Shown: positions 1 through 60,921, counted from the first letter of the stretch. The stretch: 64,000 nt of DNA from an uncultured Mycoplasma sp. (GCA_946500895.1 CAMMXG010000001.1:705-64704), one strand, 5' to 3'. Notes: generated by a model from the letters alone, not told the origin. Numbers and translations are program-made.

Positions 1-37
1 AGCACTTATAGTTCATTTTTATTAAGCCATACTAATA

Positions 38-1318
38 TTGGTGAATTTTATGAACAATTTTAATCAAGAATTAATGAACTTTTTAAAAGAAGGAACCTGT
101 ATTTTTACATGTATCAAAAAAATTAAAGAAATACTTTTAAATAATGATTATATAGAATTAAAAGAAAATGAAAAATGGAATTTAGATAATAAAAAATATT
201 TTATCATTAGAAATGATGCTTCCCTAATTGCATTCAATATAAATAAAAATAATGCTGATAAATTTAAAATAGTATGTACACATGGTGATACACCATCATT
301 TATTATCAAACCAAATCCCGAATATTATGAAAATGGTTATCAAAAATTAAATATTGCTCCCTATGGTGGAATTCTAAATTATGGGTTCATGGATAGGCCT
401 ATGTCAATTGCTGGAAGAATTATTACCAAAAAGGAAGAAAAATATCAAAGTCATATTATCGATTTAAAAAAAGCAGTTGCCATTATTCCTAGTATTGCTA
501 TTCATCAAAATGATTCTGCAAATTCAAATTTAGACTTAAATACCGAGGTTGATTTAATACCAATGATTTCTGTAAATCAAAAAGAAACAATAGAAAATTT
601 AATAAAAAATTATACAAATTTACCAGGAAAATTATTTGAATATGATTTATTTTTATATAATAATGAAGAACCAGTAATAATAAATAATGAATTTTTAGCA
701 AGTCCTAGAATTGACAATCTATCTTGTACCTATGCTGGATTAGAAGCTTTTTTAAAATCTAAAGGAAAAGATATTGACATACTAGTTATTTTTAACAGTG
801 AAGAAATTGGCTCTAACACCTTAGAAGGTGCTGATTCTAACTTTCTAATTGATACATTAAAAAAAATAAGTGCCAATTTAAATTTAGACCTACCAATTAC
901 ATTAAATAATTCTATTGTTATTAGTGCCGATAATACTCATGCAAGACATCCGAATCATGATGAATTATCCGATCATACAAACACTCCACCCCTAGATAGT
1001 GGCATTATGATTATGAAAGAAACAAGTAGTAGCACCAACAGTATTTCTTCTACTATTATGAAACATATTTGCGAAAGTAAAAAGATTAAATATTCTTATT
1101 ATACATCAAGAAACGATTATGCAACTGGTTCTACTCTAGCTGGACCCAATCTAAAACATTTAAGTATTAATTCTTTAGATATAGGCTTAGTTATGCTTGC
1201 TATGCATTCAAGTTTCGAAATTGTCGGCTTAAAAGATATTTACTTACTATATAAAGCATTACAAAAATTCTACGAAATAAAATACACATTAAATAATAAT
1301 GAAATAAATTTTCTATAA
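38..1318 (+). CDS. M18-family (aspartyl/aminopeptidase I-like) zinc aminopeptidase
   Basis: 426 aa. Segments 'IIRNDASLIAF' and 'HGDTPSF' resemble the conserved N-terminal block and metal-ligand block (HTDSP) of M18 aminopeptidases. Length is typical (~430 aa). Confidence 0.6.
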   Translation: MVNFMNNFNQELMNFLKEGTCIFTCIKKIKEILLNNDYIELKENEKWNLDNKKYFIIRNDASLIAFNINKNNADKFKIVCTHGDTPSFIIKPNPEYYENGYQKLNIAPYGGILNYGFMDRPMSIAGRIITKKEEKYQSHIIDLKKAVAIIPSIAIHQNDSANSNLDLNTEVDLIPMISVNQKETIENLIKNYTNLPGKLFEYDLFLYNNEEPVIINNEFLASPRIDNLSCTYAGLEAFLKSKGKDIDILVIFNSEEIGSNTLEGADSNFLIDTLKKISANLNLDLPITLNNSIVISADNTHARHPNHDELSDHTNTPPLDSGIMIMKETSSSTNSISSTIMKHICESKKIKYSYYTSRNDYATGSTLAGPNLKHLSINSLDIGLVMLAMHSSFEIVGLKDIYLLYKALQKFYEIKYTLNNNEINFL

Positions 1319-1352
1319 TATGATATAATAGAATCACCTAAAGAGGTTTGAT

Positions 1353-2390
1353 ATGAATATTATAGATTATATAAAAAAGAACAAAGATAAAACTTTTAAT
1401 GATTACCATTTTAATGAAATAGACAATTTAATTTTTTCTCTTTTAACATACATAGATTTTACGGGTATTGTCCCTGCTTTTAAAAATGGCAAAATAACTT
1501 TAAAGGAAGCAGCTGAAAAACTAAGTAATAAAAAGAAATATTATCGCGGTATGTTTATCAGCAATACTTTTAAAATGCTCCAAATAATGAAAGATACGAA
1601 AAGATATAAGGATACCCTACTTTATAATTATATGAAAGTAGTAAACGATGACATGCAATTTGGAGCTATAACAATGAAGTTACCTGATAAAAGTATATAT
1701 ATTTCTTTCGCTGGTACCGACTCATCTATTATTGGTTGGGAAGAAGATTTTAAAATGACTTATCTTTATCCCGGAGCTTCTCAAAAATATGCATCTGTTT
1801 ATTTAAATAAAGCAATTGGTTTATTAGATAAAACCGTACGAGTTGGTGGACACTCAAAAGGCGGTAATTTAGCTATTTGTGCTGTTATGAACGCTCACTT
1901 TTGGGTTAGAAAAAAAGTTGTAAAAATAAACAATTTTGATGGACCAGGTTTCTTAAAAAAAGAAATAGAATCTAAACCCTACAAAAAAATAGAACCAAGA
2001 ATAAAAATGTATGTTCCCAAAGAAAGTATTATTGGCATGCTTCTTTATAATACTCCTGAATATATTGTCATAAAATCAAAAGGACTAAATATATTGCAAC
2101 ATGATGCCTTTAACTGGCAAATAAAAGAAAAATCATTAATACGTGACACCCAAAGTAAAAGAAGTAAATCCCTGCAAAAAAAACTAACAAAAAAACTAGA
2201 AGAACTCTCTTTAGAAGAAAGAATTAATCTAGTTAAAAATTTATTTAATATCTTTAAAAACAACAATATTAAAGATACAAAAGAAATAAAAATAAGAGAA
2301 ATATTTAAGTTAATAAAAGAATTCAAAAAATTAGATAAAGAAGCACAAAATTTATTAACAGAATTATTAATCATTATTTTTATTAAATAA
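1353..2390 (+). CDS. lipase class-3-like alpha/beta hydrolase (DUF2974 / Mbeg1-like)
   Basis: 345 aa with nucleophile elbow 'GGHSKGG'. Lys-rich C-terminal tail. Confidence 0.5.
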   Translation: MNIIDYIKKNKDKTFNDYHFNEIDNLIFSLLTYIDFTGIVPAFKNGKITLKEAAEKLSNKKKYYRGMFISNTFKMLQIMKDTKRYKDTLLYNYMKVVNDDMQFGAITMKLPDKSIYISFAGTDSSIIGWEEDFKMTYLYPGASQKYASVYLNKAIGLLDKTVRVGGHSKGGNLAICAVMNAHFWVRKKVVKINNFDGPGFLKKEIESKPYKKIEPRIKMYVPKESIIGMLLYNTPEYIVIKSKGLNILQHDAFNWQIKEKSLIRDTQSKRSKSLQKKLTKKLEELSLEERINLVKNLFNIFKNNNIKDTKEIKIREIFKLIKEFKKLDKEAQNLLTELLIIIFIK

Positions 2391-2825
2391 CTATCTTGTT
2401 TTTTCTGTAAGTTTAATATTCTGTAATTCTATCTGCTTCAACATTAATTTTTTCTTTTCTAATGCTCTTTCTTGCATCTTTAATTCTTCCTCTTCAACTT
2501 TAACAAACATGTCTAAAATAAAATCATCAGAATATAATAACTTTAAAACATCAATAGGTAAATATCCTTCAAATCTTCCTAATATATCAGATAAATGCAA
2601 TCCCTCTTTCATAACATAACAGCCATGACTTCCCTGATAAGTAAAATAATCATCCAAATCATCTTGTGAAACACAAACTAAAGAGATATCCAATTCTTTT
2701 TCTTTTTGATACAACTCTTGCTCAAACCGCCGTAATTCCGAATTTGTTACAAAGTATTCATGAAAATATTTTATCTTCATTTTTAATAAACTAGCAAGTA
2801 AATAACCCTCTTCAACTCGATACAT
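2391..2825 (-). CDS. hypothetical protein
   Basis: 144-aa ORF, no recognisable motif. Start is 1 nt from the upstream gene's stop. Confidence 0.35.
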   Translation of the reverse strand: MYRVEEGYLLASLLKMKIKYFHEYFVTNSELRRFEQELYQKEKELDISLVCVSQDDLDDYFTYQGSHGCYVMKEGLHLSDILGRFEGYLPIDVLKLLYSDDFILDMFVKVEEEELKMQERALEKKKLMLKQIELQNIKLTEKTR

Positions 2826-2871
2826 TTTATCACTTCCTCAAAATAATATTAACACAATTATCTATATTAAA

Positions 2872-3759
2872 TCAATTTTTTCTAACACTTATTTTATCAT
2901 CACTTTCTAAATAACCAATAAGCATGGTTGAATCATTGTAATGTTTTCTTACGTTATCTTTTATTTGTTCTTCATCATAATTTGCATAACAATATTTGCA
3001 ATAATGCATACATGTATTATAACTTCCTATATCCACCATGCTAGCACAAGAACAATACTTATTATTTCTCCCTTTCCATTTTGGATAATTTTTTCCTGTT
3101 ATTTTTTTTACAAGACATCTAGGCACACAATCACCAACTCTAAATCCATATTCTTCAAGCGTATTATACTCCCCACAAGTTTGCACAGTCATATGATGAG
3201 TATGAGCTATTTTACTAAAAGATAAACCTAATTTTTTAAAATCTTCATTCGTAAAATTTTTAATACGTAAAGCATTCATATTTTTCCTAACATTTTTATA
3301 ATCGTCAATAAAAGATACAATAATATGAGCTATATACCCATCTAACTCTTTACATAATTTTTCAAATGCTCTTAGGTGATAATCCAAAGTATAGTAATTA
3401 TTTAAAAATATAGGGTCATACCGAACATATACATTTTCTTTACCAAGTAAATTAGCTATTTTTTTGATATCTAAAATTACTTGTTTCTTATCAAAAACAT
3501 TTGGTTCTATATCTATTTTATATGGTGTTAAAGTAACTTGAAATAAGATAGGCTTATTCATTTCTTTTAAATATGGTAGAATGGGATGAGGATTTTTCGT
3601 ACAAAAAACAATTAAATCAACATCATTAAAATAAATACGGCTAACAAGTTTAGGATAAATAGGATTTCTAACATCAACAAATCCCTCATGATATCGATTG
3701 ATAAACCATGGTGTATAAAAAGCTACAATATCGGTTCTACCACTAACATTCAAAATCAT
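2872..3759 (-). CDS. DUF1848-family protein with Cys-rich C-terminus
   Basis: N-terminus 'MILNVSGRTDIVAFYTPWFINR' matches the characteristic DUF1848 start. C-terminal Cys cluster (CSCASM...CMHYCKYC). Confidence 0.5.
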   Translation of the reverse strand: MILNVSGRTDIVAFYTPWFINRYHEGFVDVRNPIYPKLVSRIYFNDVDLIVFCTKNPHPILPYLKEMNKPILFQVTLTPYKIDIEPNVFDKKQVILDIKKIANLLGKENVYVRYDPIFLNNYYTLDYHLRAFEKLCKELDGYIAHIIVSFIDDYKNVRKNMNALRIKNFTNEDFKKLGLSFSKIAHTHHMTVQTCGEYNTLEEYGFRVGDCVPRCLVKKITGKNYPKWKGRNNKYCSCASMVDIGSYNTCMHYCKYCYANYDEEQIKDNVRKHYNDSTMLIGYLESDDKISVRKN

Positions 3760-3781
3760 ACTTCATCACAAGAATATTATA

Positions 3782-3812
3782 GCAAAAAAAAGAGAACTTA
3801 TTAAGCTCTCTT
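3782..3812 (-). terminator. rho-independent terminator of the surface-protein gene
   Basis: Stem AAGAGA/TCTCTT overlapping the stop codon, followed on the minus strand by a U-run (TTTTTTTTGC). Confidence 0.45.
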
Positions 3813-5435
3813 TGTTTGTTTTTTAATGTATAATGTTGCACCAACAATAGCAATGATACTAACTATTCCAGCAGCTACATAAGTAACTAAACTATCGAAT
3901 GTTTGTGGAACTTCTGGAGTTTCTTCACTAGGAGTTTCTGGAGTCGTTGGTGTATCTGTACCATCGCCAATTACATCGTCACCGTCTTCAGTTAAAGTAA
4001 CAGTATTATAACCAATTATTGCATATGTACTTAAGTGCGTAGTTTCAAATGTAATAACACCATTTGCTAATACTGCATCAAGTATTTCAGCAACTTCGCC
4101 TTCATCATTAATATAAACAACTTTAAAAGCATTATATCCTTTTACTTGATCCTCTGTTACTTTAATAGAAATAGCATAATTACCATTTGCTAATTTAACA
4201 ACTTGATCACTACTATCTTTAACAGATATATCATAAGTAGCTACTAATTTAGAATCTAATAACTCTTCCTTAGCTTCTTCTAAAGCAGTATTAATTTGTT
4301 TATTAACACTTTCCATTACCGCTTCCTCATTAGCAAGCTCTTCTTTCTCAACAACTAATTTATAGTCGTTAGAAATAGGTTCATCACTTTCAAAGGTAAC
4401 ATCTTCATCATCAGTACTAATTGTTAAATTAGGACCAACTACATAAGACTCACCATCTTGAGTTAATAAATAACCATCTGGAATATAGTTTTCATCAACC
4501 GTTACTGTATATGTACCACCTGTAATTTCTGTAGATACTTTTGAGCTAGCAGCTACCACTAGTCCTGTTCCTAAATTAAATGTTCCCCCAGTAACAGTTA
4601 CTTCTCCTATACCATCTGCTCTATACAAATATTGAGCATTAAACGTACCATCACTAATTGTTAATATACCAGGTTCAAATTCTGGACCAAATTCGTTTTC
4701 AAGTCCATAAATGGTTGCAATAGCATTATAACCTGTGAATGTTCCACCACTTACATTAACAGTACCAGTTGCTTGAATTAAAAATCCATTTTGACTTTCA
4801 AATGTTCCTTCAGTAATAGTTGTCTTTGACCAGTCATCACTTTTGATTGTTGAAGTTGTTGTTTTATGAACAAATTCACCACCATTAATAGTTAAAATGG
4901 CTACTGCGCTTGATCCCTTTTCTGGTGGTACAACTCCTAAATCATTAACAGAACCATTCACTTCCTTGCCGTCAAACCAACCATTAGCAATTAAACTAGA
5001 ATTAGCTTTATTCTCATCGCCTTGTGTAAATGTTCCGCCGTTAATATTCATAACGCTAAAGTTTTTAACAGTATACCAGTTTGCTGAATTAAATGAACCA
5101 CTTTCAACAGTAAGGGTACCCTCATTTACAATAGCAGCACGAACACTACCAGTTGCATTAATACTACCATCACCAGTAATTACTACTTCAGCACCACTTT
5201 CAACATAAATACCATGCCCATCTGTTGTTAAGCTATGACCTGCAAAATCAATGGTAATATCTTTGCTAATAGTTACTGAATCTGTGTAGTTAGCATCTAA
5301 TACTAATGTTCCTCCTTCCTCTGTAGCATCAATTTTTGATTGTAGAGTCGTTGACTCTGCATGAACAACACCCATGCTACCAAGTGTTAATCCAATTGAT
5401 ATTAAGAAAGCCCACATTACTTTCTTCATACTCAT
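3801..5435 (-). CDS. cell-surface protein: signal peptide, beta-helix-like repeats, C-terminal membrane anchor
   Basis: N-terminal signal peptide ending VHAES. Repeated 'GGTF/NGGEF/SGGTFTG' strands. Thr/Pro/Glu-rich stalk then hydrophobic helix plus KKQTKRA at the C-terminus. No LPXTG. Confidence 0.5.
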   Translation of the reverse strand: MSMKKVMWAFLISIGLTLGSMGVVHAESTTLQSKIDATEEGGTLVLDANYTDSVTISKDITIDFAGHSLTTDGHGIYVESGAEVVITGDGSINATGSVRAAIVNEGTLTVESGSFNSANWYTVKNFSVMNINGGTFTQGDENKANSSLIANGWFDGKEVNGSVNDLGVVPPEKGSSAVAILTINGGEFVHKTTTSTIKSDDWSKTTITEGTFESQNGFLIQATGTVNVSGGTFTGYNAIATIYGLENEFGPEFEPGILTISDGTFNAQYLYRADGIGEVTVTGGTFNLGTGLVVAASSKVSTEITGGTYTVTVDENYIPDGYLLTQDGESYVVGPNLTISTDDEDVTFESDEPISNDYKLVVEKEELANEEAVMESVNKQINTALEEAKEELLDSKLVATYDISVKDSSDQVVKLANGNYAISIKVTEDQVKGYNAFKVVYINDEGEVAEILDAVLANGVITFETTHLSTYAIIGYNTVTLTEDGDDVIGDGTDTPTTPETPSEETPEVPQTFDSLVTYVAAGIVSIIAIVGATLYIKKQTKRA

Positions 5436-50725: not shown

Positions 50726-51154
50726 ACTCTTCCCTCCACTTAATACATCTACGATTTACAACTTGATTATAAATTCATATATAGAAAAAAACAAGTGCTT
50801 TTTTAGACAAATTTTTGCCATTTTTTTAAGATGCCCATAAACACTTAGAAGAATGAAAAAAATTTTTTTGTTCGCTTTACGACAATTGACAATTATTTAA
50901 CAAAATGAACATTCGTGATTTCAAAAAAATCTTAAAAGGTGTTTTTTGAAAAAAGTAGGAACTCATTTTTTGGCTTAAATTAAGCAAATAGTAAAAAATA
51001 TTTTTCTAAAAAAACGAAGTTTGACTATTTTTTTAAAATACAAAAGGTGTTTTTTTAAAAGAAATATTATTTAGAAATTAAACCACAAAATACCTAGAAA
51101 TTAGTAAAAGACTTGCAAGGAATTACATTTTTTAATATAATTGATATATCAAAT

Positions 51155-51197
51155 GTCCTCGTAGCTCAGTAGGATAGAGCAATTGCCTCCTAAGCAA
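51155..51197 (+). tRNA. 5' half of a disrupted host tRNA-Arg(CCT) (acceptor, D-arm, anticodon stem-loop up to the att core)
   Basis: GTCCTCG-TA-GCTC-AGTAGGATA-GAGC-A-ATTGC-CTCCTAA-GCAA, then diverges. Pairs perfectly with the 3' half at 60814-60847. Confidence 0.55.
51186..51197 (+). repeat. attL core (CCTCCTAAGCAA), identical to 60802-60813
   Basis: 12-bp exact direct repeat at both junctions. Corresponds to the tRNA anticodon loop plus 3' stem. Confidence 0.5.
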
Positions 51198-51247
51198 AGG
51201 GTGACGTTTGAAAAATGATAAAAACCCCAATAAAATCGGGAAAATTT

Positions 51248-51324
51248 GTTCTCGTAACTCAGTTGGATAGAGTATCCCTCTCCTAAAGGGAAAGTCGGCA
51301 GTTCGAGCCTGCCCGAGAACACCA
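51248..51324 (+). tRNA. tRNA-Arg (anticodon CCT), complete, element-encoded
   Basis: Manual fold: acceptor GTTCTCG/CGAGAAC, D-stem ACTC/GAGT, anticodon stem TCCCT/AGGGA with loop CTCCTAA, T-stem GGCAG/CTGCC with loop TTCGAGC, discriminator A, encoded CCA. Confidence 0.85.
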
Positions 51325-51436
51325 TTATTGTATATAGAAGTCTTGTAAATAAAGCATTTACAAGATTTTTTTGTATTTTTAAAAGTGTTACAAAGTATCA
51401 CAATTTAACATCATATGGCACCTAATTCGGCACTTT

Positions 51437-51478
51437 TTTCGGCACCAATTTCGGCACTCGGTAAAACACTTCAAATTG
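51437..51478 (+). repeat. four direct GGCAC(C) repeats at ~12-bp spacing (putative integrase arm-type sites, left end)
   Basis: ATGGCACC / TTCGGCAC / TTCGGCACC / TTCGGCAC. Three more copies at the right end (60634-60671) in the same orientation. Confidence 0.4.
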
Positions 51479-51565
51479 TCTATAAAAATCAAGTAAAATA
51501 TGAGCAAATACAGAGCGAGGAATTTCGTGTTGGAACAAACCAAAATTAAAGATAAGGAGTAAAAA

Positions 51566-51796
51566 ATGAGAGAAGAATTTAAAAACATGAGGTTTAATAT
51601 CACAGAGGATATGTATAATACTATGCTTGAAATGTTAGTCATACATCAAATGCTAGAAGATTTTAACCCAACTAAAAAAGAAAAGAGAATGCTTAATAAA
51701 AAGTTGAAAAACTTGCAATATCATTTTACGTATGAGCTACAACTTCATAACCCCATGCAAATACACATTTATAATAAATTTATGAAAGACGAATAG
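51566..51796 (+). CDS. small hypothetical protein (76 aa)
   Basis: ORF with AAGGAG RBS 8 nt upstream. No recognisable domain. Confidence 0.3.
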   Translation: MREEFKNMRFNITEDMYNTMLEMLVIHQMLEDFNPTKKEKRMLNKKLKNLQYHFTYELQLHNPMQIHIYNKFMKDE

Positions 51797-51851
51797 ATAG
51801 GCATAACACCCTATCTTTTTATCTACTTTAATACTATATATATGAGGACAA

Positions 51852-52379
51852 TTATTTTTTCCAAACATTAAATATCGAATCTTCAAACTTTTCATATAAT
51901 GTTCGGGGTATTTCTGTACCTTTTGCAAATATAAAAGGGTTTACCAAAATGTATTGTTCCTCACTTTCTACTTGTATAATTTCTTTTTCTATTAAGCCAT
52001 TAATGGCTCTATCAAAAGTTTTTGAGTTCATATTTAATATTTTACGTAAATCTCTTTTATTTAAAAAGCCTGCAAACATATTGCATTGTATTTTGATTAA
52101 ATAACCACTATACTCGCCAAAACCAATATGACTTAGCATAGCAAATATAATTTGTGCCTCGCTACCTGTAAAACGCATTATTGATAAAATATCGCTTGTT
52201 TTACAAAATAACTTAGTGAAGGTTATATTTTGGTTTAGCTTTATATATTGTTTATCATGTTCTACTTGCGAGGCACGTCTAATACGCACCTCATCACCTG
52301 CATTTATTTCTTTACAAACATTGTAGTCTTTATCGACAATATAACCCTCGTGAGGCATTTGTTTTGGTAAATTTAACAT
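51852..52379 (-). CDS. RepL-like replication initiator / winged-helix DNA-binding protein
   Basis: 175 aa. C-terminal pattern 'IGFGEYSGYLI...FLNKRDLRKILNMNSKTFDRAINGLIEKEIIQV...YILVNPFIFAKG' parallels Firmicute plasmid RepL ('...IGGKKLKIVNYIL...IAKATGTSLQTVITTLKILEEGNIIKR...MLNPELLMRG'). Confidence 0.45.
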   Translation of the reverse strand: MLNLPKQMPHEGYIVDKDYNVCKEINAGDEVRIRRASQVEHDKQYIKLNQNITFTKLFCKTSDILSIMRFTGSEAQIIFAMLSHIGFGEYSGYLIKIQCNMFAGFLNKRDLRKILNMNSKTFDRAINGLIEKEIIQVESEEQYILVNPFIFAKGTEIPRTLYEKFEDSIFNVWKK

Positions 52380-52531
52380 TTAAAATCATCTCCTTTTTGT
52401 TAAAAATGTCTCACATCTGTAAATAATTAGGACAAAAATGGCATATATTAAATAGCCATTTTTTCTTTTATATAAAGGGAAAGTTCACTAAAAAATGATT
52501 TTATCTATCTAATATCTTATTTCAACATTCG

Positions 52532-52879
52532 CTAACACCTACCGCTAGAGCAGTAATCTCTACTTGCATTATACATACAAGTAGGACAATTTCTCTCGAA
52601 GCCTTGGTATTCAAGAGCCTTTGTGAATTGGCTACCAAACACACCTGAACCAAAACGTATCTTTGCTATCTCTTCTCTTATGACTTCTCTAACTATCTTT
52701 TCTACAAGTTGTTCGAGTTCACTTTTCTCGAACGGCTTGTTTCTTTTGGTATCTTTTTCTTTCATAGCCTTAACATTGACTTCGTTTATCATTTCAGCAA
52801 TGTCGTATTCAAGCACTTCGCCAAAGCCTTTCCTAATACTCTCTAAGTCAAACAAGTCTTTAAACTCGTATTGTCTCAT
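52532..52879 (-). CDS. hypothetical protein with C-terminal Cys cluster (CPTCMYNASRDYCSSGRC)
   Basis: Start placed at MRQYEF (GGAGG 8 nt upstream), not the longer track ORF. No domain assignment. Confidence 0.35.
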   Translation of the reverse strand: MRQYEFKDLFDLESIRKGFGEVLEYDIAEMINEVNVKAMKEKDTKRNKPFEKSELEQLVEKIVREVIREEIAKIRFGSGVFGSQFTKALEYQGFERNCPTCMYNASRDYCSSGRC

Positions 52880-52945
52880 GAATATCGCCTCCATTGATTT
52901 TTTTTTACAATTACATTTTAAACGTTTTTGGTACGTTCTGTTATC

Positions 52946-53110
52946 TCTAAACAATTCTTTTTTTCAAAAATTCTTTGAAATCTTCGTCTTTAACTAAGTA
53001 CCTACCGCTCAAACGTATAGCAGGAAGATGTCTATCACGAATTAGCTTTTGGATAGTCTTAACGTTAATTCCCGTCATGCAACTTATTTCCTTAGTGGAA
53101 TAAAATTTCA
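52946..53110 (-). CDS. excisionase/AlpA-like HTH_17 small DNA-binding protein (54 aa)
   Basis: Not in the ORF track. MKFYSTKEISCMTGINVKTIQKLIRDRHLPAIRLSGRYLVKDEDFKEFLKKRIV. CCTAGGAGGTG RBS. Similar to the xis-like protein at 59198. Confidence 0.45.
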
Positions 53111-53383
53111 TGTACTCACACCTCCTAGGACTTATATTCCTTTGCCCTTACTTGTTAGGAGTGAAAAGGCGGCTGCACTCCACTAAAAGAACCGCAAAAA
53201 AACAAGCCTGTTAAATAAGCCTGTTTTAGCCTTTTAGAGAAACAAATATCCGAGAGCATATAATCAATGTTATGGGAAGAAAAAAAGCTCCCACGCATGA
53301 CTACTCAAAGAATAATCAGTACAATGGGGGCATAGTTTTGCGGTTTTTCTCTTGACTTTCTTAAAAAAGGGGCGGTTGTTCCT

Positions 53384-54097
53384 TTACTCACTTTGCGTTT
53401 TCAATTTGCACATAGTAAATAGATATATTACAAGTATATAGATACTATCTCCAAAACCACCAAAAGTAATAGTTGATATTACACATAATATTACGATTAA
53501 AACGTGTAAAATTATGCTTTTATAACCAAATTTGTTTAGCATATTAATTATCACGCATGATATAATACCTACAATAAAAGCAATACCCTGATAAAGCCCA
53601 TGGGAAATCAAAGAAAAACTTTCTAAAACACTTGGCCATCTAATTATAATGGCAAGTATTAATAGCATAATTATAGCTATATCATATAGATTTATTTTTT
53701 TACCTTTTTTATTAATTATAATCAAAGTGGTATAAATTAAAACAATTGCATTATATAAGCTAAAGTTTTTAAGTAGAACTACCAGTAGTAATATCGTTAA
53801 AATTGCTGCGAAAATAGGAATGATTTTATATTCTTCTTTTAACTTTATTGCCAAATACCAAAATACATATATTAAACAAAGTGGAATTAATCCAACTCCC
53901 TCCATAACAAGTAGCAAAAGCAGTAGAATGAATAACCCTATTAAAATATAATCGAATATTCCTATATTATACTTTTGTTTTATTTCTTTAAAACTAGTAC
54001 TCTCATTTGTTGTTTGAAGCTCGATACCACAATGAGGACATTCTGTTGCAGTATCACTTACTTTTTTACCACATTCTTTACATTTAATTAATGCCAT
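53384..54097 (-). CDS. zinc-ribbon (CxxC...CxxC) N-terminus fused to polytopic membrane domain; paralog 3 of 3
   Basis: Starts MALIKCKECG...CPHCG, then ~6 TM helices. The track uses an upstream GTG start. Confidence 0.5.
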   Translation of the reverse strand: MALIKCKECGKKVSDTATECPHCGIELQTTNESTSFKEIKQKYNIGIFDYILIGLFILLLLLLVMEGVGLIPLCLIYVFWYLAIKLKEEYKIIPIFAAILTILLLVVLLKNFSLYNAIVLIYTTLIIINKKGKKINLYDIAIIMLLILAIIIRWPSVLESFSLISHGLYQGIAFIVGIISCVIINMLNKFGYKSIILHVLIVILCVISTITFGGFGDSIYILVIYLFTMCKLKTQSE

Positions 54098-54102
54098 ATC
54101 TA

Positions 54103-54627
54103 TCACTCTTTCTCATACATATCTCCATCACTTTCTCTTAGGCTATTTCCAACTATTGTAAATCTTTTCAAAACTTCGCCATCCGAGTAAACCCTTAAAG
54201 TATTTCCGCTTCTTTCATAAGTACAATCAAAAGTTATCGCACCTGTATAATAAGAACAAGTCTTATCTTTATACAATGTTATACTACTTCTGAAAGTATA
54301 TCCATATCTCGTACTTTCATGAACGTAAGTTCCCTCAAGTGAAGATGTGCTAAATATAAAGATAATCGCTACCACAAGTATTATTGCAACAATACCAATA
54401 ATTATCTTTTTCTTTTTATCAAGATGGTTAATAATATTTTTTCCCTTTATTTTTTCTTTCAAAAGATTATAACCACATTCAGGACAAACTTTGCTATCAG
54501 CTTTGACTTTTTCTCCACATTCAGGGCATTCTATTTTTAATTCTTCGTTTGGTGCTTTGCATTTTGGACAAGCCTTTGCTTTATCGCTCATTTCTGCTCC
54601 ACATTCTTTACATTTAATTAATGCCAT
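54103..54627 (-). CDS. double zinc-ribbon + single-TM + extracytoplasmic domain protein; paralog 2 of 3
   Basis: Starts MALIKCKECG...CPKC, second ribbon CPECG...CPECG. One TM, C-terminal ~80-aa domain. AGGAGA RBS before the MALIKC start. Confidence 0.5.
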   Translation of the reverse strand: MALIKCKECGAEMSDKAKACPKCKAPNEELKIECPECGEKVKADSKVCPECGYNLLKEKIKGKNIINHLDKKKKIIIGIVAIILVVAIIFIFSTSSLEGTYVHESTRYGYTFRSSITLYKDKTCSYYTGAITFDCTYERSGNTLRVYSDGEVLKRFTIVGNSLRESDGDMYEKE

Positions 54628-54643
54628 TTTTATTCTCCTAACC

Positions 54644-55240
54644 TTACTCCACAACTAAATTTTGATTTAACCAAGCTATTTGTTCTTCTGAAAAAGTATA
54701 GAATGTATCTTTAACACCATCTCTATTATCTTCAAGACAATGCTGATTACCATAAAAATTATCAAGCATGTCAAGATAATCTCTACCACTGTATGTCATT
54801 CCATCTTGGTTTCCATCATATACTGTAGGATTTACTAATTCACCAGTATCTGCATTTGTTAACAACCATTGAGTGGTATATTTATTGTTGTAATCATAAT
54901 ACCAAAAGTCAACAGAATACCTATCATCACATTTGCTTACATTAGTAATATATACTTTATTATTACGATGAAGGTTTGGGGCATCTATATCCCAATCTAC
55001 TTCCATTAACATATTTAAAACTTCTTGCGTTTCTTCATCTATCTCATTTTCGCTATCCTTAGAATTAGGGCTAAATGCAAATAAACATGTAAATCCTATA
55101 GCAATTATTCCAATAATTACCATTAGTATTTTCCCAACATTTTCATTTTTATTTTTTTCTATTTTTTTGCCACAATTGGGGCAGTTTTTTTCTTGATTGC
55201 TTATATCTGCACCACATTCACTACATTTAATTAATGCCAT
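54644..55240 (-). CDS. zinc-ribbon + single-TM + Cys-containing extracytoplasmic domain protein; paralog 1 of 3
   Basis: Starts MALIKCSECG...CPNCG. One TM, then a ~140-aa outside domain rich in D/N/Y/W. Confidence 0.5.
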   Translation of the reverse strand: MALIKCSECGADISNQEKNCPNCGKKIEKNKNENVGKILMVIIGIIAIGFTCLFAFSPNSKDSENEIDEETQEVLNMLMEVDWDIDAPNLHRNNKVYITNVSKCDDRYSVDFWYYDYNNKYTTQWLLTNADTGELVNPTVYDGNQDGMTYSGRDYLDMLDNFYGNQHCLEDNRDGVKDTFYTFSEEQIAWLNQNLVVE

Positions 55241-55246
55241 TTGAAA

Positions 55247-55477
55247 TTACACTCCTTTATCATATTTAAAAATTATCTTTTTTTGCAAATGTATTTCAGG
55301 AATTACCTCGTAAGTAAAACCTTTATTTAATAATTCTTGTCTCAAGACAGATTTTTTACTATCGATATTTTTAGGTATATCAAAACCAGTTAGCTTTTTA
55401 AACTCTTCATTGCTTAACTCAAAATCTTGTTTCTTGTCAAGTTTCTCATAAAGTGGTTCATATCTTTTCTTAGCCAT
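55247..55477 (-). CDS. small hypothetical protein (76 aa), first gene of the zinc-ribbon operon
   Basis: ORF 6 nt upstream of paralog 1. Divergent from the Xre gene. Confidence 0.3.
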   Translation of the reverse strand: MAKKRYEPLYEKLDKKQDFELSNEEFKKLTGFDIPKNIDSKKSVLRQELLNKGFTYEVIPEIHLQKKIIFKYDKGV

Positions 55478-55583
55478 TTTCTCAAACTCCTTTCTTGCTT
55501 AATATTATAACATAAAACCCCACCTATTGGTAGGGGTATTTGTTTATAAAAATATAAGATAATTATTAAAAGGCAGGTGGACT

Positions 55584-55847
55584 ATGGAACATTCTAAAGA
55601 CGATAATAATTACGTTTATTATTGGGTGGGAAAAAACATCAGAAAGCAAAGGAAATTAAAAGGTTGGACGCAAAGACAACTTGCCGAGAAGTGTAGTTTT
55701 AGTGAAAACTTTATCGGCGACTTAGAGAATGAAACATTTAAGACTTGCTCTCTAAACACTTTGTATCACATTTCCAAAGTGCTTGGTGTTCCTTTAAAAG
55801 TATTCTTTGAAGAATTAGACGAGAGCGATATTAAGCCAAAGAAATAA
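55584..55847 (+). CDS. Xre/cI-family HTH regulator of the element
   Basis: 87 aa. 'LKGWTQRQLAEKCSFSENFIGDLENE' HTH_XRE. Divergent arrangement with a 106-bp control region. Confidence 0.65.
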   Translation: MEHSKDDNNYVYYWVGKNIRKQRKLKGWTQRQLAEKCSFSENFIGDLENETFKTCSLNTLYHISKVLGVPLKVFFEELDESDIKPKK

Positions 55848-55924
55848 GATATGCAAAACACATATCTTTTTTATATCCTAATTGTATGATTTTATATTGG
55901 AGAATTATTAAATAAAAAAGAGGA

Positions 55925-56698
55925 CTATTCTTCCTCTTGCAAATGATTTTCAAAATAATCTTCTTCACTTACGATTTTAAGTTTAGCACCTGTATATTCG
56001 CCAAAGTTAGTTTCGTCTAATTTCTTAAAGTCAATGGAGTTAATATTCTCATTGATAAAATTATAAAGCAAATTAGCAAAGTTTTGCTTAGCTTCCATAT
56101 TATCATTAAAAATAAAGCCAAATAGTTCTTGGTATTCACTAGGTAAAATATTTTTATACAAAGGATATGTTATATTCATTTCCAAACTATCTTTTAAGAA
56201 TTTATCTACTAACTTATCTATTTTTTTGGTAGGTATTTTGGTTTTATTATCAAGTGCATTTCTATCATAAGTGATTATATTTTCTTGTACTAATTTTTCT
56301 AAAATAGGTATGATGTATTCTTCTTTGTATTGATTAATTTTTTCGGGATAAGTTTTAATTCTTCGCATTACTTCTACAAAATCACGAGCAATTCTTTTTT
56401 TAGAGCTTGGTGTTGCAGTACCTAAATAATCATAATCTTTTCCAAATATTAGTTCTCGCTCATTTAAGGAAAGGTTAATGTTTTCAAATTGTCTGATGTA
56501 ATTAAGAATATCTATTTTAAAATCGTATTCCTCGGTTTCGTCCTCAAGTCCGAGCTTTAGTATTTCGGGCATTACATAATCACTTACAAATTTTTGTATT
56601 TTTTCTAATTCTTTTCTTTCTGATGTATTATCTTTTCTTTTGAAAATATCCTCTTTTCTATTTTCTTTTAACATTTTCATAGTATTAATTGATTTCAT
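55925..56698 (-). CDS. hypothetical protein (257 aa), cargo gene
   Basis: No recognisable motif. Start is 2 nt after the stop of the 387-aa gene. Confidence 0.35.
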   Translation of the reverse strand: MKSINTMKMLKENRKEDIFKRKDNTSERKELEKIQKFVSDYVMPEILKLGLEDETEEYDFKIDILNYIRQFENINLSLNERELIFGKDYDYLGTATPSSKKRIARDFVEVMRRIKTYPEKINQYKEEYIIPILEKLVQENIITYDRNALDNKTKIPTKKIDKLVDKFLKDSLEMNITYPLYKNILPSEYQELFGFIFNDNMEAKQNFANLLYNFINENINSIDFKKLDETNFGEYTGAKLKIVSEEDYFENHLQEEE

Positions 56699-56699
56699 T

Positions 56700-57863
56700 T
56701 TAACTCACTCTTTCAAATAATTTTTGGTTTCTTTCAATAATCTTTTGTATTTTGATTAAAGCCTCTTGAACTTGGCTTTTGTCGTTCATTGTTGGAACGT
56801 TATCATATATTAAGGCATATACCTCTTTTAAATCTCGGACTATCTTTAAAAGCAAATCGGATCGTATTGTAAAAGTTAAATCATTCGTTGTAATTCTATC
56901 CATATTTATATAGAAAAAATATAAGTCAGAGTTAGACACATACTCATCAGGTTTAAAAAGGTATATCACATCAAGAATATGCTTATTCGTGCAAATATTA
57001 CTATATACATATTTTGTCAATGCTTTCATAGTTTTTGCAATTTCACTAGTATAAGCTTTACTTAATTGTTGGAAGTTTTCACTATTTTCCATATTGATAT
57101 TAAGTGTTTGTAAATAGGCATTAAAGTAATTGTCAGAGAAAGACATTTCATTTAAGCCAAACTCTTTTTTGCTATCGTCAAAAAATAATTTTACAATACC
57201 ATTATTTCCACAGGCAATTAGTTTATAAATTAAGCAAACGTCATTCATTTCTTGTTCTTGCAATTCCACTCCATATATATCATAAAACTCTTGCTTGTAC
57301 TTGATTATTTCTTCTTGTTGGTTAGGATATAGGTAATCAAGTTTACTTATATAGATTTTATAATCACTATCTTTGTTTTTCTTATAACTTATATTTTCTT
57401 TTACAACACTATCAAACTCAACACTTTCCAAGTCGCTCATTTCTTCTTCTACTTCTTTTTTTACGAAGTCAAGCTCATTGATATTAGATAGATAATCATA
57501 CCACTCAATAAACTTATTAAAAAGGTGTCGTGTATGGCTATCAATTAGATTTTTAATTGTTCTCGTGCTATATTTATACTTTCCTGTGTCTACATCATCA
57601 CTTTCAAGACTACCATATAAGGCAATAGTTAGAGTATCCAATATCTCTATTTTTTTATCATAGAGGTTTTTGTTACTATCGGCAAAGAGAATGTTATTGA
57701 TTTTAATTAGTGTTTTAAACACATCAAGCATAATGTCATATTGCTCTTTGTATTCCTTTCTAAAATCAGTTATTTCAAGAGTGTGTTCTAACGCATTAAT
57801 ATACTTGCTATTTCTAAAAATATTGTCCGATAAGGTATTATGTCTATATCCCATTAAAATCAC
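56700..57863 (-). CDS. hypothetical protein (387 aa), cargo gene
   Basis: No recognisable motif, acidic. Forms a tight pair with the 257-aa gene. Confidence 0.35.
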   Translation of the reverse strand: MILMGYRHNTLSDNIFRNSKYINALEHTLEITDFRKEYKEQYDIMLDVFKTLIKINNILFADSNKNLYDKKIEILDTLTIALYGSLESDDVDTGKYKYSTRTIKNLIDSHTRHLFNKFIEWYDYLSNINELDFVKKEVEEEMSDLESVEFDSVVKENISYKKNKDSDYKIYISKLDYLYPNQQEEIIKYKQEFYDIYGVELQEQEMNDVCLIYKLIACGNNGIVKLFFDDSKKEFGLNEMSFSDNYFNAYLQTLNINMENSENFQQLSKAYTSEIAKTMKALTKYVYSNICTNKHILDVIYLFKPDEYVSNSDLYFFYINMDRITTNDLTFTIRSDLLLKIVRDLKEVYALIYDNVPTMNDKSQVQEALIKIQKIIERNQKLFERVS

Positions 57864-57920
57864 TCCTACAAGCCAAATTATAGCATAAAAAAAGGCTATC
57901 TCAAACAGGATAGCAACGTT

Positions 57921-58265
57921 TTATTGTAATTCTTTATCAATAAAGGCTTTAATACTTTTATCAGAGCAGTCCTCTACGTTTTGTTTGTCTAAGCTATCAA
58001 ACTTTAAGCTAAGTTCTTCGGCATAGCTTGAAGCCTTTTCCTTATCCATATTCTTTTCGCTAATTAAATATTTTTCGATAAAGTCAAAAAGATATTCTTC
58101 CCACATCATTTGCCTGTCTTTATTAGAATAATCATTCGTTAAATAAAGATACATAAGATAGTCGCCTTTATCAGAAGAATAGTTTTGTAAAAAGCCTTTG
58201 TATTCTTCTCGCTCTTTCTCTAACTTTTTAAGCTCGTTTGTCAGTTCTTGCATTTTCATATACAT
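57921..58265 (-). CDS. hypothetical charged/coiled-coil protein (114 aa)
   Basis: ORF only. Confidence 0.3.
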   Translation of the reverse strand: MYMKMQELTNELKKLEKEREEYKGFLQNYSSDKGDYLMYLYLTNDYSNKDRQMMWEEYLFDFIEKYLISEKNMDKEKASSYAEELSLKFDSLDKQNVEDCSDKSIKAFIDKELQ

Positions 58266-58380
58266 ACCTCTTTTCTACATCAATATTATAGCATTAAAAA
58301 AGCTATCTTGCTATAAGATAACTTTAATTTTGTTTTTTAATAGCTTATTTTAGCTTGTTTATAGTTTAAAATAGTTTAAA

Positions 58381-58650
58381 TTAGTCTAATTCACTTAGAA
58401 TCTCGTTATACTTCATAAAATCATTGTATAGCTTTTGGATAGCAGTATATAAACTCGCTATTCTACTATCAATACTATTCTTAGAAGTATTATTCTTTTG
58501 TTGTACGCTCAAGAATTTTTGAAATTTCTTAATTGTTGCTTTAGATAACTCTTTTTCAGTATATCTATTAAGCATAACTTCAACCATAACCTCTCTAATA
58601 TCGTTTAAATCTAAAATATTTTTTGTTTTACTATCTAACATTCTAATCAC
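58381..58650 (-). CDS. hypothetical protein (89 aa)
   Basis: ORF only. First gene of the leftward cargo operon. Confidence 0.3.
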   Translation of the reverse strand: MIRMLDSKTKNILDLNDIREVMVEVMLNRYTEKELSKATIKKFQKFLSVQQKNNTSKNSIDSRIASLYTAIQKLYNDFMKYNEILSELD

Positions 58651-58950
58651 TTTCCTTTCTTTGTGGGGTTGCCACGTTTTGTTAGATTTTACAAACGTTT
58701 AAGTCGACTTGTTCGTTTGTGATTTCATTCTAGCAAAGAAAAGCGAGAAAAAAAGATACATAAAAAAAAGATAAGTGTACCATTCTTGAAAACTGCAAAC
58801 CCTTTATTTACAGGACTTTCAGAGCTTTTTGATACCGATTTTTCGAGTTAAAAGTTTAAAAATAGAATAAAATTTTTTTAACATTTATTAGCAGGAGTAC
58901 ACTCATTTTTTATCCTTATATATATTTAATAGCTGTCGCAGAAAAAAACT

Positions 58951-58996
58951 ATCATAAACTATCACAAACTATTACAAAGTATCACAAAGTGTTAAA
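58951..58996 (+). repeat. five tandem ~10-bp iteron-like direct repeats (AAACTATCAT/AAACTATCAC/AAACTATTAC/AAAGTATCAC/AAAGTGTTAA)
   Basis: Read directly. A two-unit copy (AAAGTGTTAC/AAAGTATCAC) occurs at the other end of the element (51402-51421). Confidence 0.4.
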
Positions 58997-59197
58997 TTTT
59001 TTTTAAATCTTTTTTTTAAATCTCATTCGATAAATCGGAACAGGCATTTTTAAGAAATCCCCATAAATACTAGGTTTATGACTTGAAAAACTCTTTCAAA
59101 ATTAGTGCAGAAAAAAATTTTTTTCGTTCGAGAACGTGCTTTTTTTATCTTGTATTATGTAATCACTCAAGCAAGAGAGAAAGGACGAGTGAGAACA

Positions 59198-59395
59198 ATG
59201 ACAAAAAAGATATGTGATATTACAGAGGTAGCAAGTTATTTACAGGTTTCTGTTTCCGAGGTTAGAAAGTTAGTGAGATCAAAAAGAATACCACACTTTA
59301 GAATTGGAAATAGACTAAAGTTTGACTTAATCAAAATTAATTCTTGGCTCGATGATTTAGAGGCACAAGAAAGCAAAAGAGTATTTATTTTCTAA
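59198..59395 (+). CDS. xis: excisionase-like HTH_17 DNA-binding protein
   Basis: MTKKICDITEVASYLQVSVSEVRKLVRSKRIPHFRIGNRLKFD. AAAGGA RBS. Immediately upstream of int. The track's longer N-terminus is unlikely. Confidence 0.55.
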   Translation: MTKKICDITEVASYLQVSVSEVRKLVRSKRIPHFRIGNRLKFDLIKINSWLDDLEAQESKRVFIF

Positions 59396-59499
59396 ATAAA
59401 AAAATAGCGGTTTTACTAGGAATTATGGGCAAAATATGATATAATTATATTAGATAATTTGAAGTTTTGCTCATATAAGAAAGGAGTTAAAAAAAGATT

Positions 59500-60627
59500 A
59501 TGAGCATAAAAAGATTATCAAATAATAAATATAAAATAACAATAGAACTTGGATATGATATTTTAGGTAATAGAAAGAGAAAAACAGAAACATTTAATGG
59601 TACTAAAGCGGAGGCAACTATAAGAGAGGCAGAACTTATGAAAAAGTTTTACCACATCGGTCAGTCAAGTAATATAAACGACTTAAATTTCGAGGAATAC
59701 TCTCAAATTTTTGTAGCAAAATATTGTGATAAAATTGGTCTAGTTACTAAAGATGGCTACGTAAGGTCATTAAAAATGATTATTCCAATAATAGGTAAAA
59801 TTAAACTCAATAAAATTACCCCTCTTGTTTTAGACAATATGTATCAAAAATTAAAAATTGGCGAAAAAGGACAAGAGCTTGGCTACCACTCAATGTATGC
59901 TTATTACAAACTAATAAATGTTATGTTTAATCAAGCTATCAAATGGGAGCTTATTGATAAAAACCCAAACTTGAAAGCAAATAAACCTAAAAAAGAAAAA
60001 ACAGAGCGTAGATATTATGACTTAGAGCAAGTTCACAAATTATTATCTTGCCTATCTAATGAAAGAATAAAGTATAGAACTCTGATAACTCTAGCTTTAG
60101 ATAGTGGCATGAGAAGAAGTGAAATTTGTGCTTTACGTTGGAGCGATGTTGATTTTGATACCAATACGATTAAAATCAATAAATCTTTAAAGGTTGTTAA
60201 GGGTGTTGTTGACGAGGAAACTACAAAAACAGAAAGTTCAAAAAGAGAAATTATTGTTAGTAATGCTACCATTAATCTTTTGAAAAAGTATAAAGAATGG
60301 CAAGACAATTATATTAAAGAAATGGGTAAAAAGTGGATAGGTACTGATAGAGTATTTACTTCTAAAGAGGGCAACTATATGTACCCAAGCACTTGCGACC
60401 ATACTTTAAGAAAAATAATCAAAAAATATAACCTAGACCCTATTTGCTTTCACGAACTAAGACATACATCTGCAAGCATCTTAATTCATAAAGGTATAAA
60501 CCCAAAAGCAGTAAGTCAAAGATTAGGTCATGCCGACACAAGTATTACAATGGAAATCTATTCACATACCTTTGATGTTACCAAAAAAGAAAGTGCTAAA
60601 GCATTCGACGAAGTATTAAGTTATTAA
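59500..60627 (+). CDS. int: tyrosine-type site-specific recombinase/integrase
   Basis: 375 aa. N-terminal SAM-like/arm-binding region. Catalytic 'LDSGMRRSEICALRW' (R), 'HELRHTSAS' (HxxR), 'LGHADTSITMEIYSH' (Y). Transcribed toward attR. Confidence 0.85.
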   Translation: MSIKRLSNNKYKITIELGYDILGNRKRKTETFNGTKAEATIREAELMKKFYHIGQSSNINDLNFEEYSQIFVAKYCDKIGLVTKDGYVRSLKMIIPIIGKIKLNKITPLVLDNMYQKLKIGEKGQELGYHSMYAYYKLINVMFNQAIKWELIDKNPNLKANKPKKEKTERRYYDLEQVHKLLSCLSNERIKYRTLITLALDSGMRRSEICALRWSDVDFDTNTIKINKSLKVVKGVVDEETTKTESSKREIIVSNATINLLKKYKEWQDNYIKEMGKKWIGTDRVFTSKEGNYMYPSTCDHTLRKIIKKYNLDPICFHELRHTSASILIHKGINPKAVSQRLGHADTSITMEIYSHTFDVTKKESAKAFDEVLSY

Positions 60628-60633
60628 AAAAAT

Positions 60634-60671
60634 GGCACCAAAAAAAAGAAATGGCACCAATTTTCGGCACC
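60634..60671 (+). repeat. three GGCACC direct repeats between int and attR (putative arm-type sites, right end)
   Basis: AATGGCACC...AATGGCACC...TTCGGCACC. Same motif and orientation as 51437-51478. Confidence 0.4.
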
Positions 60672-60801
60672 AACCTAAAAAATCAAGTTCTAAAAGTTAG
60701 TAATAAAGAATAATAAAATGCTAAAAAAAACCTTAAATAAAGGGAAAACAAGCCTTTCTATATATTAAAAAAATGGTGTTCTTGTTGGAATAGAACACAC
60801 C

Positions 60802-60813
60802 CCTCCTAAGCAA
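60802..60813 (+). repeat. attR core (CCTCCTAAGCAA)
   Basis: Exact copy of 51186-51197. Confidence 0.5.
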
Positions 60814-60847
60814 TAGGTCGTTGGTTCGATTCCAATCGGGGACGCCA
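60802..60847 (+). tRNA. 3' half of the disrupted host tRNA-Arg(CCT) (anticodon loop to CCA)
   Basis: CTCCTAA-GCAAT-AGGTC-GTTGG-TTCGATT-CCAAT-CGGGGAC-G-CCA. Acceptor 3' strand pairs with GTCCTCG at 51155. No 5' half is present locally. Confidence 0.55.
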
Positions 60848-60921
60848 TTAAAAGCACAAATAAGAGCATAACCACTCTTATTTTTTCATGTCGTTTTACT
60901 TCTCTTTTAAATTATGCTAAA

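Follow-up and report, generated by a model that had tools for sequence, protein, structure and literature searches.

A probable 9.6-kb integrative element splits a tRNA-Arg(CCT) gene of an uncultured gut bacterium and carries a predicted replacement tRNA in its attachment site

Temperate phages that destroy a host transfer RNA (tRNA) gene and bring their own copy have been described as cases of tRNA-dependent lysogeny, which Guerrero-Bustamante and Hatfull (mBio 2024) reported for temperate actinobacteriophages, with an experimental demonstration in mycobacteriophages; examples are Fionnbharth (K4), LeBron (L), Cain (K6), Gaia (X), BrutonGaster, and Mollymur (PMC10865867). These phages integrate at 8-17-bp cores in tRNA-Lys, tRNA-Ile2, or tRNA-Leu genes without rebuilding the tRNA, and they depend, as experiments showed, on a cognate tRNA of their own, while sister phages with 43-52-bp cores rebuild the tRNA and are missing the extra gene (PMC10865867). 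The authors predicted that the phenomenon occurs beyond actinophages and cited the Lactobacillus johnsonii prophage Lj965 (PMC10865867). Classical islands of the Islander/TIGER type cross over in the anticodon loop and hold the tRNA 3' half in their own attachment site, attP (PMC4383910, PMC7192596). 'Gene replacement' has been reported for an element encoding transfer-messenger RNA (tmRNA) in the Rhodobacter tmRNA gene, where the target is not restored, and hrpB-inactivating islands carry another hrpB (Mageeney et al. 2020, PMC7192596). Here we describe a 64-kb stretch of DNA from an uncultured Mycoplasma sp. (CAMMXG010000001.1; the whole stretch is called the window, and positions are counted from its first letter), in which a 9.6-kb element interrupts a host tRNA-Arg(CCT) gene. 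Because the element carries a complete tRNA-Arg(CCT), we placed it in the described class of tRNA-dependent integration (PMC10865867). The target is split at the anticodon loop, and we consider it likely that a conserved cognate tRNA within attP takes over the lost function.

The 5' half of the host tRNA (GTCCTCG...GCAATTGCCTCCTAAGCAA) was read on the plus strand at 51155-51197, where it forms the left attachment site (attL) and ends in the core CCTCCTAAGCAA (51186-51197). The 3' half (CCTCCTAAGCAATAGGTCG...CGGGGACG) was read at 60802-60847, directly followed by CCA at 60848-60850 and then by the host terminator, and the right attachment site (attR, 60802-60850, plus strand) begins with an exact second copy of the 12-bp core (60802-60813). 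Joined in silico, the two halves yielded a 77-nt tRNA-Arg(CCT) in ARAGORN, which called no tRNA at attL alone or attR alone. An earlier note, made from the sequence of the window, had described the halves, the core, and the acceptor and anticodon stems of the joined tRNA in the same way. By itself, a 12-bp repeat within 10 kb of DNA with 28% GC is not significant, so a comparison with other genomes was needed to decide.

Empty sites were sought in the GTDB set with one genome per species, using the tRNA 5' half plus core as the query. The 5' half was found in 96 species-representative genomes, with the gene uninterrupted in all 96, and about ten of these contained exactly the joined sequence; the latter were uncultured gut metagenome-assembled genomes (MAGs) labeled 'Bacilli', 'Tenericutes', or 'Mycoplasmatota'. 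The flanks of the window were common to five sister species (L083, L078, L053, L071, and L046), with 85-92% identity on the nrdD side. In these species nrdD, the tRNA promoter, a single intact tRNA, the terminator, and the next open reading frame (ORF) were contiguous, and the loci were collinear with the window after deletion of 51198-60813. The nrdD-linked sites of the sister species thus hold one tRNA and no element, and both tRNA halves of the window were 100% identical to the intact sister alleles. The uninterrupted tRNA-Arg that the earlier note had proposed to look for in related genomes was therefore present, rather than the same split everywhere with no empty site. As judged from these comparisons, empty sites exist and the insertion is real and recent. 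The inserted DNA is probably a 9.6-kb integrative element comprising 51198-60801, with one copy of the 12-bp core on each side.

A complete tRNA-Arg(CCT) with an encoded CCA, which the earlier note had overlooked, lies at 51248-51324 on the plus strand, 50 nt inside attL. It was the only intact tRNA called by ARAGORN in the window and scored 62.2 bits on Rfam RF00005 (gathering score 29). The element tRNA has the same anticodon as the split host tRNA, but only 50 of 80 aligned positions are identical and the anticodon stems differ (TCCCT/AGGGA in the element tRNA and ATTGC/GCAAT in the host). Since the empty sites have a single tRNA and no second one, this second tRNA gene belongs to the inserted DNA. 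With a complete tRNA-Arg(CCT) carried by the element, the host tRNA need not be rebuilt, and we propose the element tRNA as a substitute for the split gene. A metagenome scan with the element tRNA recovered a lone ordinary host tRNA with 90% identity (L118), which may resemble the donor lineage of the element tRNA.

Searches with the integrase of the element returned 765 homologues at E < 1e-20, nearly all from gut metagenomes, and genomic context was fetched for several of them. The integrase on a 132-kb contig (L097) was 85% identical to that of the window and belonged to an element at an unrelated locus in another host. There, a different tRNA-Arg(CCT) allele was split, reading GTCTGCG...CCTCCTAA|ATAAGGGG at the left junction and ...ACACC CCTCCTAA|GCGGTAGG... 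at the right junction; the two halves have 8 bp in common and join into a valid tRNA, and an element tRNA-Arg(CCT) is located 54 nt inside the left junction. Between the window and L097, the element tRNAs were identical at 74 of 77 positions, with all three differences in the T-loop, while the adjoining spacers were identical at only 26 of 54 positions. Such a conserved tRNA beside a diverged spacer indicates purifying selection on the element tRNA.

Relatives of a second type rebuild their target. Elements L099-L107 and L113, from a spore-forming host, had integrases 78-79% identical to that of the window and the same backbone genes, and targeted tRNA-Arg(TCT). They were bounded by a 46-bp direct repeat from the anticodon loop to CCA, the target tRNA was rebuilt, and no full tRNA was carried. 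Elements L108-L110 (integrase 71% identical) and L115-L117 (75%) were also joined to tRNA-Arg(CCT) 3' halves at the loop. A full tRNA was present in two of the two tRNA-splitting elements that were fully seen, and in none of the tRNA-rebuilding relatives seen.

To place the element tRNA within the recombination site, attP was reconstructed for the tRNA-carrying and the classical form and the two were aligned. They ran in register through the P arm repeats, the conserved GAACACACC left of the core, the loop, the tRNA 3' end, the terminator, the TATCACAAAGTATCAC motif, and the P' arm repeats, so the full tRNA occupies the place of the 3' half of the classical relatives, within attP, with the crossover core on one side and the P' arm-type sites on the other. 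Relative to the classical form, the tRNA-carrying attP has an extra 94 nt as an insertion, made up of a remnant of ~13 nt resembling the 3' half, the promoter-like spacer, and the 5' two-thirds of the full tRNA. The remnant, a decayed 3'-half sequence (AGGGTGACG...) kept on the P' side of the window element, lies in the element-side spacer at 51198-51247 (plus strand). The earlier note had rightly seen decayed similarity inside attL, as GCAAAGGGTGACG aligns with the start of the tRNA 3' half of the classical relatives, GCGATCGGTCGTG. The hallmark of a classical island, an attP fragment that regenerates the target within a long direct repeat, was found in L099 and L103-L107 and is lacking in the window, where 12 bp are shared.

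The full tRNA was probably captured by aberrant excision of an ancestral classical element. In this scheme, a classical ancestor would have integrated, with a rebuilt tRNA forming at attL; an aberrant excision would then have joined attR, a few bases past the core, to host sequence preceding the tRNA promoter, and the promoter and the whole tRNA gene would thereby have been captured into attP. Such a course of events would account for every piece of the attP architecture.

The position of the crossover was indicated by a comparison of host alleles. In L128, whose integrase is 98% identical to that of the window, the arm of the same element continues, at CCTCCTAA(G), into a third host allele, GGGAAAGGTCG..., and the three alleles of the window, L097, and L128 diverge from one another immediately after CCTCCTAA(G), which places strand exchange within CCTCCTAA. 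A crossover in the anticodon loop is thus supported, with recombination deduced from the junctions and the empty sites, and the integrase-mediated insertion in the loop that the earlier note proposed was borne out by the empty sites and the allele comparison. The tyrosine integrase itself, also recognized in that note, is encoded at 59500-60627 on the plus strand (PF00589, E = 1.5e-32) and has SAM-like N-terminal domains. Residues R205, K243, H318, R321, H344, and Y354 were invariant in the family alignment and are read as the usual catalytic set of tyrosine recombinases; by these signs the integrase is intact. Just upstream, the excisionase-like gene previously noted was recovered as a plus-strand gene for a Xis-like HTH_17 protein at 59198-59395 (phrog_66, excisionase), whose relatives have 65 amino acids (aa); in the window, the longest ORF for this gene starts at 59105.

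Putative integrase-binding repeats flank the attachment site. Four GGCACY repeats with an exact 12-bp spacing lie at 51417-51458 and three GGCACC repeats at 60634-60671, both on the plus strand. The window has 18 matches to GGCACY, of which seven fall in these two end clusters, all seven on the plus strand, and the clusters were kept across the integrase family in the attP alignment; they are best read as P' and P arm-type sites, respectively. Adjoining the P' arm is a GTTACAAAGTATCACAA motif (51382-51403, plus strand) that is kept in relatives and belongs to the same repeat family, D2, as the tandem 10-bp AAACTATCAC-type repeats upstream of xis (58946-58987, plus strand). These 10-bp AAACTATCAC / GTATCACAA repeats are conserved in relatives, and Xis, a regulator, or a replication protein is a possible ligand. 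Left of the right-hand core, element sequence at 60776-60801 (plus strand, family D7) resembles a decayed tRNA 5' half (GTTCTTG..TTGGAATAGAACACACC), as does the attR side of L115-L117. In L115 (6366-6437), and likewise in L116 and L117, attR gave a 72-nt 'tRNA-Arg(CCT)' call in ARAGORN that is a pseudo-tRNA, its 5' half being element DNA that mimics one.

A further observation concerns the minimal core CCTCCTAA (51186-51193 and 60802-60809), whose complementary strand reads as a strong Shine-Dalgarno sequence, TTAGGAGG, so ribosome-binding sites on the other strand are potential secondary integration sites. One such candidate was rejected: an occurrence of CCTCCTAA in the related contig L119 is a reverse-complemented ribosome-binding site whose flanks do not match the P' arm. 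Two contigs from other samples, L129 and L112, end exactly at ...CCCCTCCTAAG, as would happen when an assembler meets two continuations past the core (attR and attP, or two host alleles), and weakly hint at excised forms or multiple hosts. A check of L101 and L112 for circularity was uninformative, as their ends are merely bounded by the tRNA repeat.

The layout of the junctions suggests how a replacement might work. The integrase appears to have recombined attP with the anticodon loop of the host tRNA-Arg(CCT). Because attP and attB share only the loop and a few bases, the host gene is now in two dead pieces: its promoter remains attached to the 5' half at attL, its terminator to the 3' half at attR. 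The putative host tRNA promoter is a TTGCAA-17 nt-TATAAT site at 51113-51141 (plus strand, 10 of 12 matches) whose CTTGCA...TATAAT positions are kept in the empty sites of the sister species. After integration it faces into attL and the element tRNA, which sits co-oriented behind it, 50 nt downstream of the broken gene. The spacer holds a promoter-like TTGAAA-17 nt-TAAAAT of its own (51208-51236, plus strand) preceding the element tRNA. A hairpin with a T-run, TCTTGTAAAT-AAAGC-ATTTACAAGA-TTTTTTT (51341-51372, plus strand), identified by eye, is read as the terminator of the element tRNA; its position is kept in relatives, and it has too few G-C pairs in the stem for the terminator scan to list it. 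The plus-strand terminator scan found none between the host promoter-like site and the element tRNA, which could thus be transcribed from its own promoter-like site or from that of the host. The element tRNA would then take over the decoding of AGG, and if so, integration would be harmless without rebuilding of the target. The integrase and the Xis-like protein should be able to excise the element and restore the host gene exactly, given that neither half yet differs from the intact alleles.

The codon AGG is used 2.45 times per 1000 codons in the host genes of the window, which amounts to 8% of arginine codons, and it occurs in about half of these genes. In element genes its frequency is 2.6 per 1000, not commoner than in the host. 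The replacement role of the element tRNA is predicted indirectly, from its conservation (74/77, against 26/54 for the spacer) and the use of AGG by the host.

The remaining genes of the element were examined for signs of its nature. Next to the attP module is a plus-strand ORF of 76 aa (51566-51796) that is kept at this end of related elements, with 76-85 aa there. The minus-strand gene that follows (51852-52379) encodes a 175-aa protein that the earlier note called a RepL-like replication gene. This assignment did not hold, as neither the protein nor six relatives matched RepL (PF05732) at E up to 1. Homologues of the 175-aa protein gave weak matches to Rep3_N, DnaD_N, Phage_rep_O, and generic winged-helix domains instead, the best being that of homologue P0125 to Rep3_N (22.9 bits, E = 1.2e-4), and the protein is possibly a winged-helix protein of replication-initiator-like or DNA-binding type. 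Classical relatives have a non-homologous HTH_36 protein at this position. Also on the minus strand are a 140-aa ORF (111-118 aa in relatives) and a 54-aa HTH_17 DNA-binding protein of the MerR/excisionase type (52532-53111), followed by variable cargo (53384-55477) that comprises a 76-aa ORF and three membrane proteins (240, 183, and 198 aa), which are paralogues and all have a zinc ribbon at the N terminus. The zinc-ribbon genes (53384-55240) are arranged in tandem, share a repeat of ~70 nt at their 5' ends (family D1), and vary from one to five copies across related elements; PADLOC matched no defence system among them, and NCBIfam and PHROGs gave no match for the cargo proteins either.

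The Xre gene named in the earlier note was confirmed at 55584-55847 on the plus strand (HTH_3, E = 1.8e-9). A conserved backbone operon on the minus strand (55925-58650) encodes proteins of 89, 114, 387, and 257 aa with unassigned function, which had no match in Pfam, PHROGs, NCBIfam, PADLOC, and PDB profile searches, and tblastn against phage and plasmid records returned nothing. AlphaFold2 models of the 387-aa and 175-aa proteins had predicted local distance difference test (pLDDT) scores of 53 and 59, respectively, too low for fold searches. Among the element proteins, Pfam and PHROGs searches gave no match to capsid, terminase, relaxase, virion, or lysis genes, in agreement with the absence of capsid, terminase, and relaxase genes reported before. 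The integrase, the attL/attP junction, and the element tRNA had no close counterpart in scans of viral contigs, and an IMG/VR profile scan found no close family member, the best integrase identity being <=32%. With no detectable phage genes and no close viral relative, the element does not appear to be a temperate phage.

Other explanations of the locus were weighed against the replacement of the split tRNA by that of the element. The window is probably from a MAG, and exactly these two junctions were seen on no other fetched contig, so the split tRNA might be attributed to faulty assembly, or to a rearrangement that became fixed long ago, instead of to a mobile element that inserted recently. 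We find this hardly credible, given the existence of empty sites, the complete identity of both halves to intact sister alleles, the presence of both junction types on the 132-kb contig L097, and L128, which comes from another sample and joins the same element to a different tRNA-Arg(CCT) allele. A real integration could also carry a tRNA that compensates for nothing, being a remnant of an earlier host, an escape from anticodon nucleases, or an addition to decoding, while the host tRNA-Arg(UCU) reads AGG. The rarity of AGG in the host and its similar frequency in element genes would agree with this, as would the anticodon stem that differs from that of the host tRNA, the existence of the same element without this tRNA (L119 and L121), and the proposal that phage tRNAs counter tRNA-degrading defences (PMC10865867). 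Nonetheless, the anticodon is exactly that of the destroyed gene, the tRNA is found in both fully seen splitting elements and in no rebuilding relative seen, it is far better conserved than its surroundings, and it sits in attP at the place of the rebuilding fragment; a non-compensating tRNA is thus quite unlikely. The nature of the element is a separate question, for which the earlier note offered a PICI-like satellite or an integrative plasmid; a plasmid-like element and a passive island are both possible. It could also be a satellite resembling phage-inducible chromosomal islands (PICIs), dependent on a helper phage for packaging, for which tRNA replacement would be merely the mode of integration. 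Its small size of 9.6 kb, its int, xis, and Xre regulator genes, the missing virion, terminase, and relaxase genes, and the abundance of the family in gut metagenomes fit such a satellite. However, the searches turned up no genes for a primase, a helicase, a small terminase, or capsid remodelling, the backbone proteins lack counterparts in PHROGs and in phage records, IMG/VR holds no close relative (integrase identity <=32%), and the weak winged-helix initiator signals of the 175-aa homologues fit a plasmid-like replicon equally well. We regard a satellite as possible but rather unlikely.

Several points weigh against the replacement of the host gene by the element tRNA. Both junctions of the tRNA-carrying form were seen at two loci only, the window and L097. 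The host may be able to do without tRNA-Arg(CCU) if its tRNA-Arg(UCU) reads AGG by wobble, in which case 'dependence' could be weak, and the host DNA covered amounts to 64 kb, so a second tRNA-Arg(CCT) copy is possible elsewhere. Both promoter-like sites are consensus matches in AT-rich DNA at a frequency not above that in shuffled sequence, and the aberrant-excision origin of the attP is a deduction only. L119 and L121, from two samples and two assemblers, contain the same element (97-99% identical) without the module of core, tRNA-Arg(CCT), and terminator, and these copies are the main reason why our confidence in a strict dependence is not higher. In L119, homology to the window ends at the terminator of the element tRNA (51341-51372), at ~51375. 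Instead, its segment 8538-9200 has another P' arm, which has diverged (TCGGCACTTTTAGGCATTTTTAGGGCACTCG), and an entire tRNA-Leu(GAG) encoded on the opposite strand; host-like genes come next. Neither L119 nor L121 showed a tRNA-Arg half close by, and this copy, whose right junction was not recovered, may have arisen by a module swap, be left over from a tandem arrangement, or occupy a different site. It is conceivable, though very unlikely, that the core-tRNA-terminator segment is an exchangeable cassette, swapped to change both the target and the replacement tRNA, that L119 and L121 show such a swap, and that the host halves decay until the element tRNA is the sole copy and the element can no longer be lost. 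If true, this would be a new kind of small, self-locking mobile element without known replication, transfer, or packaging genes.

Some further features were seen around the relatives and the host locus. Elements with identical integrase proteins occurred in opposite orientations relative to the same host flanks (L099, L103, and L105 versus L100, L104, and L107), with Germane/GerE/SpoIIIAH on one side and nrdD on the other, which points to inversions spanning the element or to the existence of several tRNA-Arg(TCT) targets. In L017, the tRNA-Arg(CCT) is likewise inverted relative to nrdD. L108 is adjoined (1-4789) by a complete type I restriction-modification system (hsdR, hsdM, and hsdS) and a DUF4238 gene; all of these genes may be its cargo, the left end of this element being outside the data. 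In a sister species, L033 (CALVQN010000001.1, 2800-7830), ~5 kb lie between nrdD and an intact tRNA-Arg(CCT). This stretch contains a D-Ala-D-Ala ligase-like gene, a VanX/VanY-like peptidase, an acyltransferase, and an alanine racemase, and looks like a van-type cluster; it also has an Xre gene with 71% DNA identity to that of the element. L047, with an element-like terminator after an intact tRNA, was considered as a classical element at the same attB and dropped, as its downstream genes are unrelated.

If the proposed replacement holds, the strategy of destroying the target and bringing one's own tRNA is also used by small non-viral elements in uncultured Firmicutes-like bacteria of the gut. 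One integrase family with both rebuilding and replacing forms offers a clean comparison of the conversion between them, and the evidence suggests that attP took up a whole tRNA. Programs that locate islands by pairing a tRNA with its displaced fragment will place such elements wrongly, and tRNA gene counts of MAGs may include element-borne substitutes. The cassette of int, attP, and tRNA, ~1.8 kb in total, is a possible self-complementing integration tool for organisms with minimal tRNA sets.

Compared with gene-replacing islands, as described in the literature, the window element is alike in that the target is disrupted and not restored while a homologue is supplied, and differs in the target and the element families. 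It resembles PICI satellites in its small size, int, xis, and Xre-type regulator, and lack of virion genes; in contrast to them, primase-replicase, terS, and capsid-redirecting genes were not detected, and the backbone had no PHROG or phage match. With its classical relatives L099 and L103-L107 it shares the integrase family (78-79% identity), the attP layout, and the backbone genes, whereas classical elements have a 46-bp repeat and a rebuilt functional tRNA in place of the 12-bp repeat, dead halves, and separate full gene of the window.

The closest counterpart is tRNA-dependent lysogeny, with which the element has in common a tyrosine integrase with arm-type sites, an attB in a host tRNA gene, a short core (12 bp in the window and 8 bp in L097) with no tRNA rebuilt, an element-encoded tRNA with the same anticodon in both the window and L097, and a division into replacing and rebuilding forms, here of tRNA-Arg(CCT) versus tRNA-Arg(TCT) elements. 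Unlike those phages, it is a 9.6-kb element without detectable phage genes, to which the term 'lysogeny' is inapplicable; its host belongs to an uncultured low-GC gut lineage of Bacilli rather than to the actinobacteria; and its target is tRNA-Arg(CCT), of doubtful essentiality, with the requirement for the tRNA predicted from sequence. Fionnbharth has its tRNA at another place in the genome, on the strand opposite to gene 37, whereas here the tRNA is inside attP and co-oriented. All features that define tRNA-dependent integration at the sequence level are present in the window element, and of the defining features it lacks only that of being a phage. The principle was published in 2024, and here it is seen in a small element without phage genes, with the proposed replacement tRNA embedded in attP.

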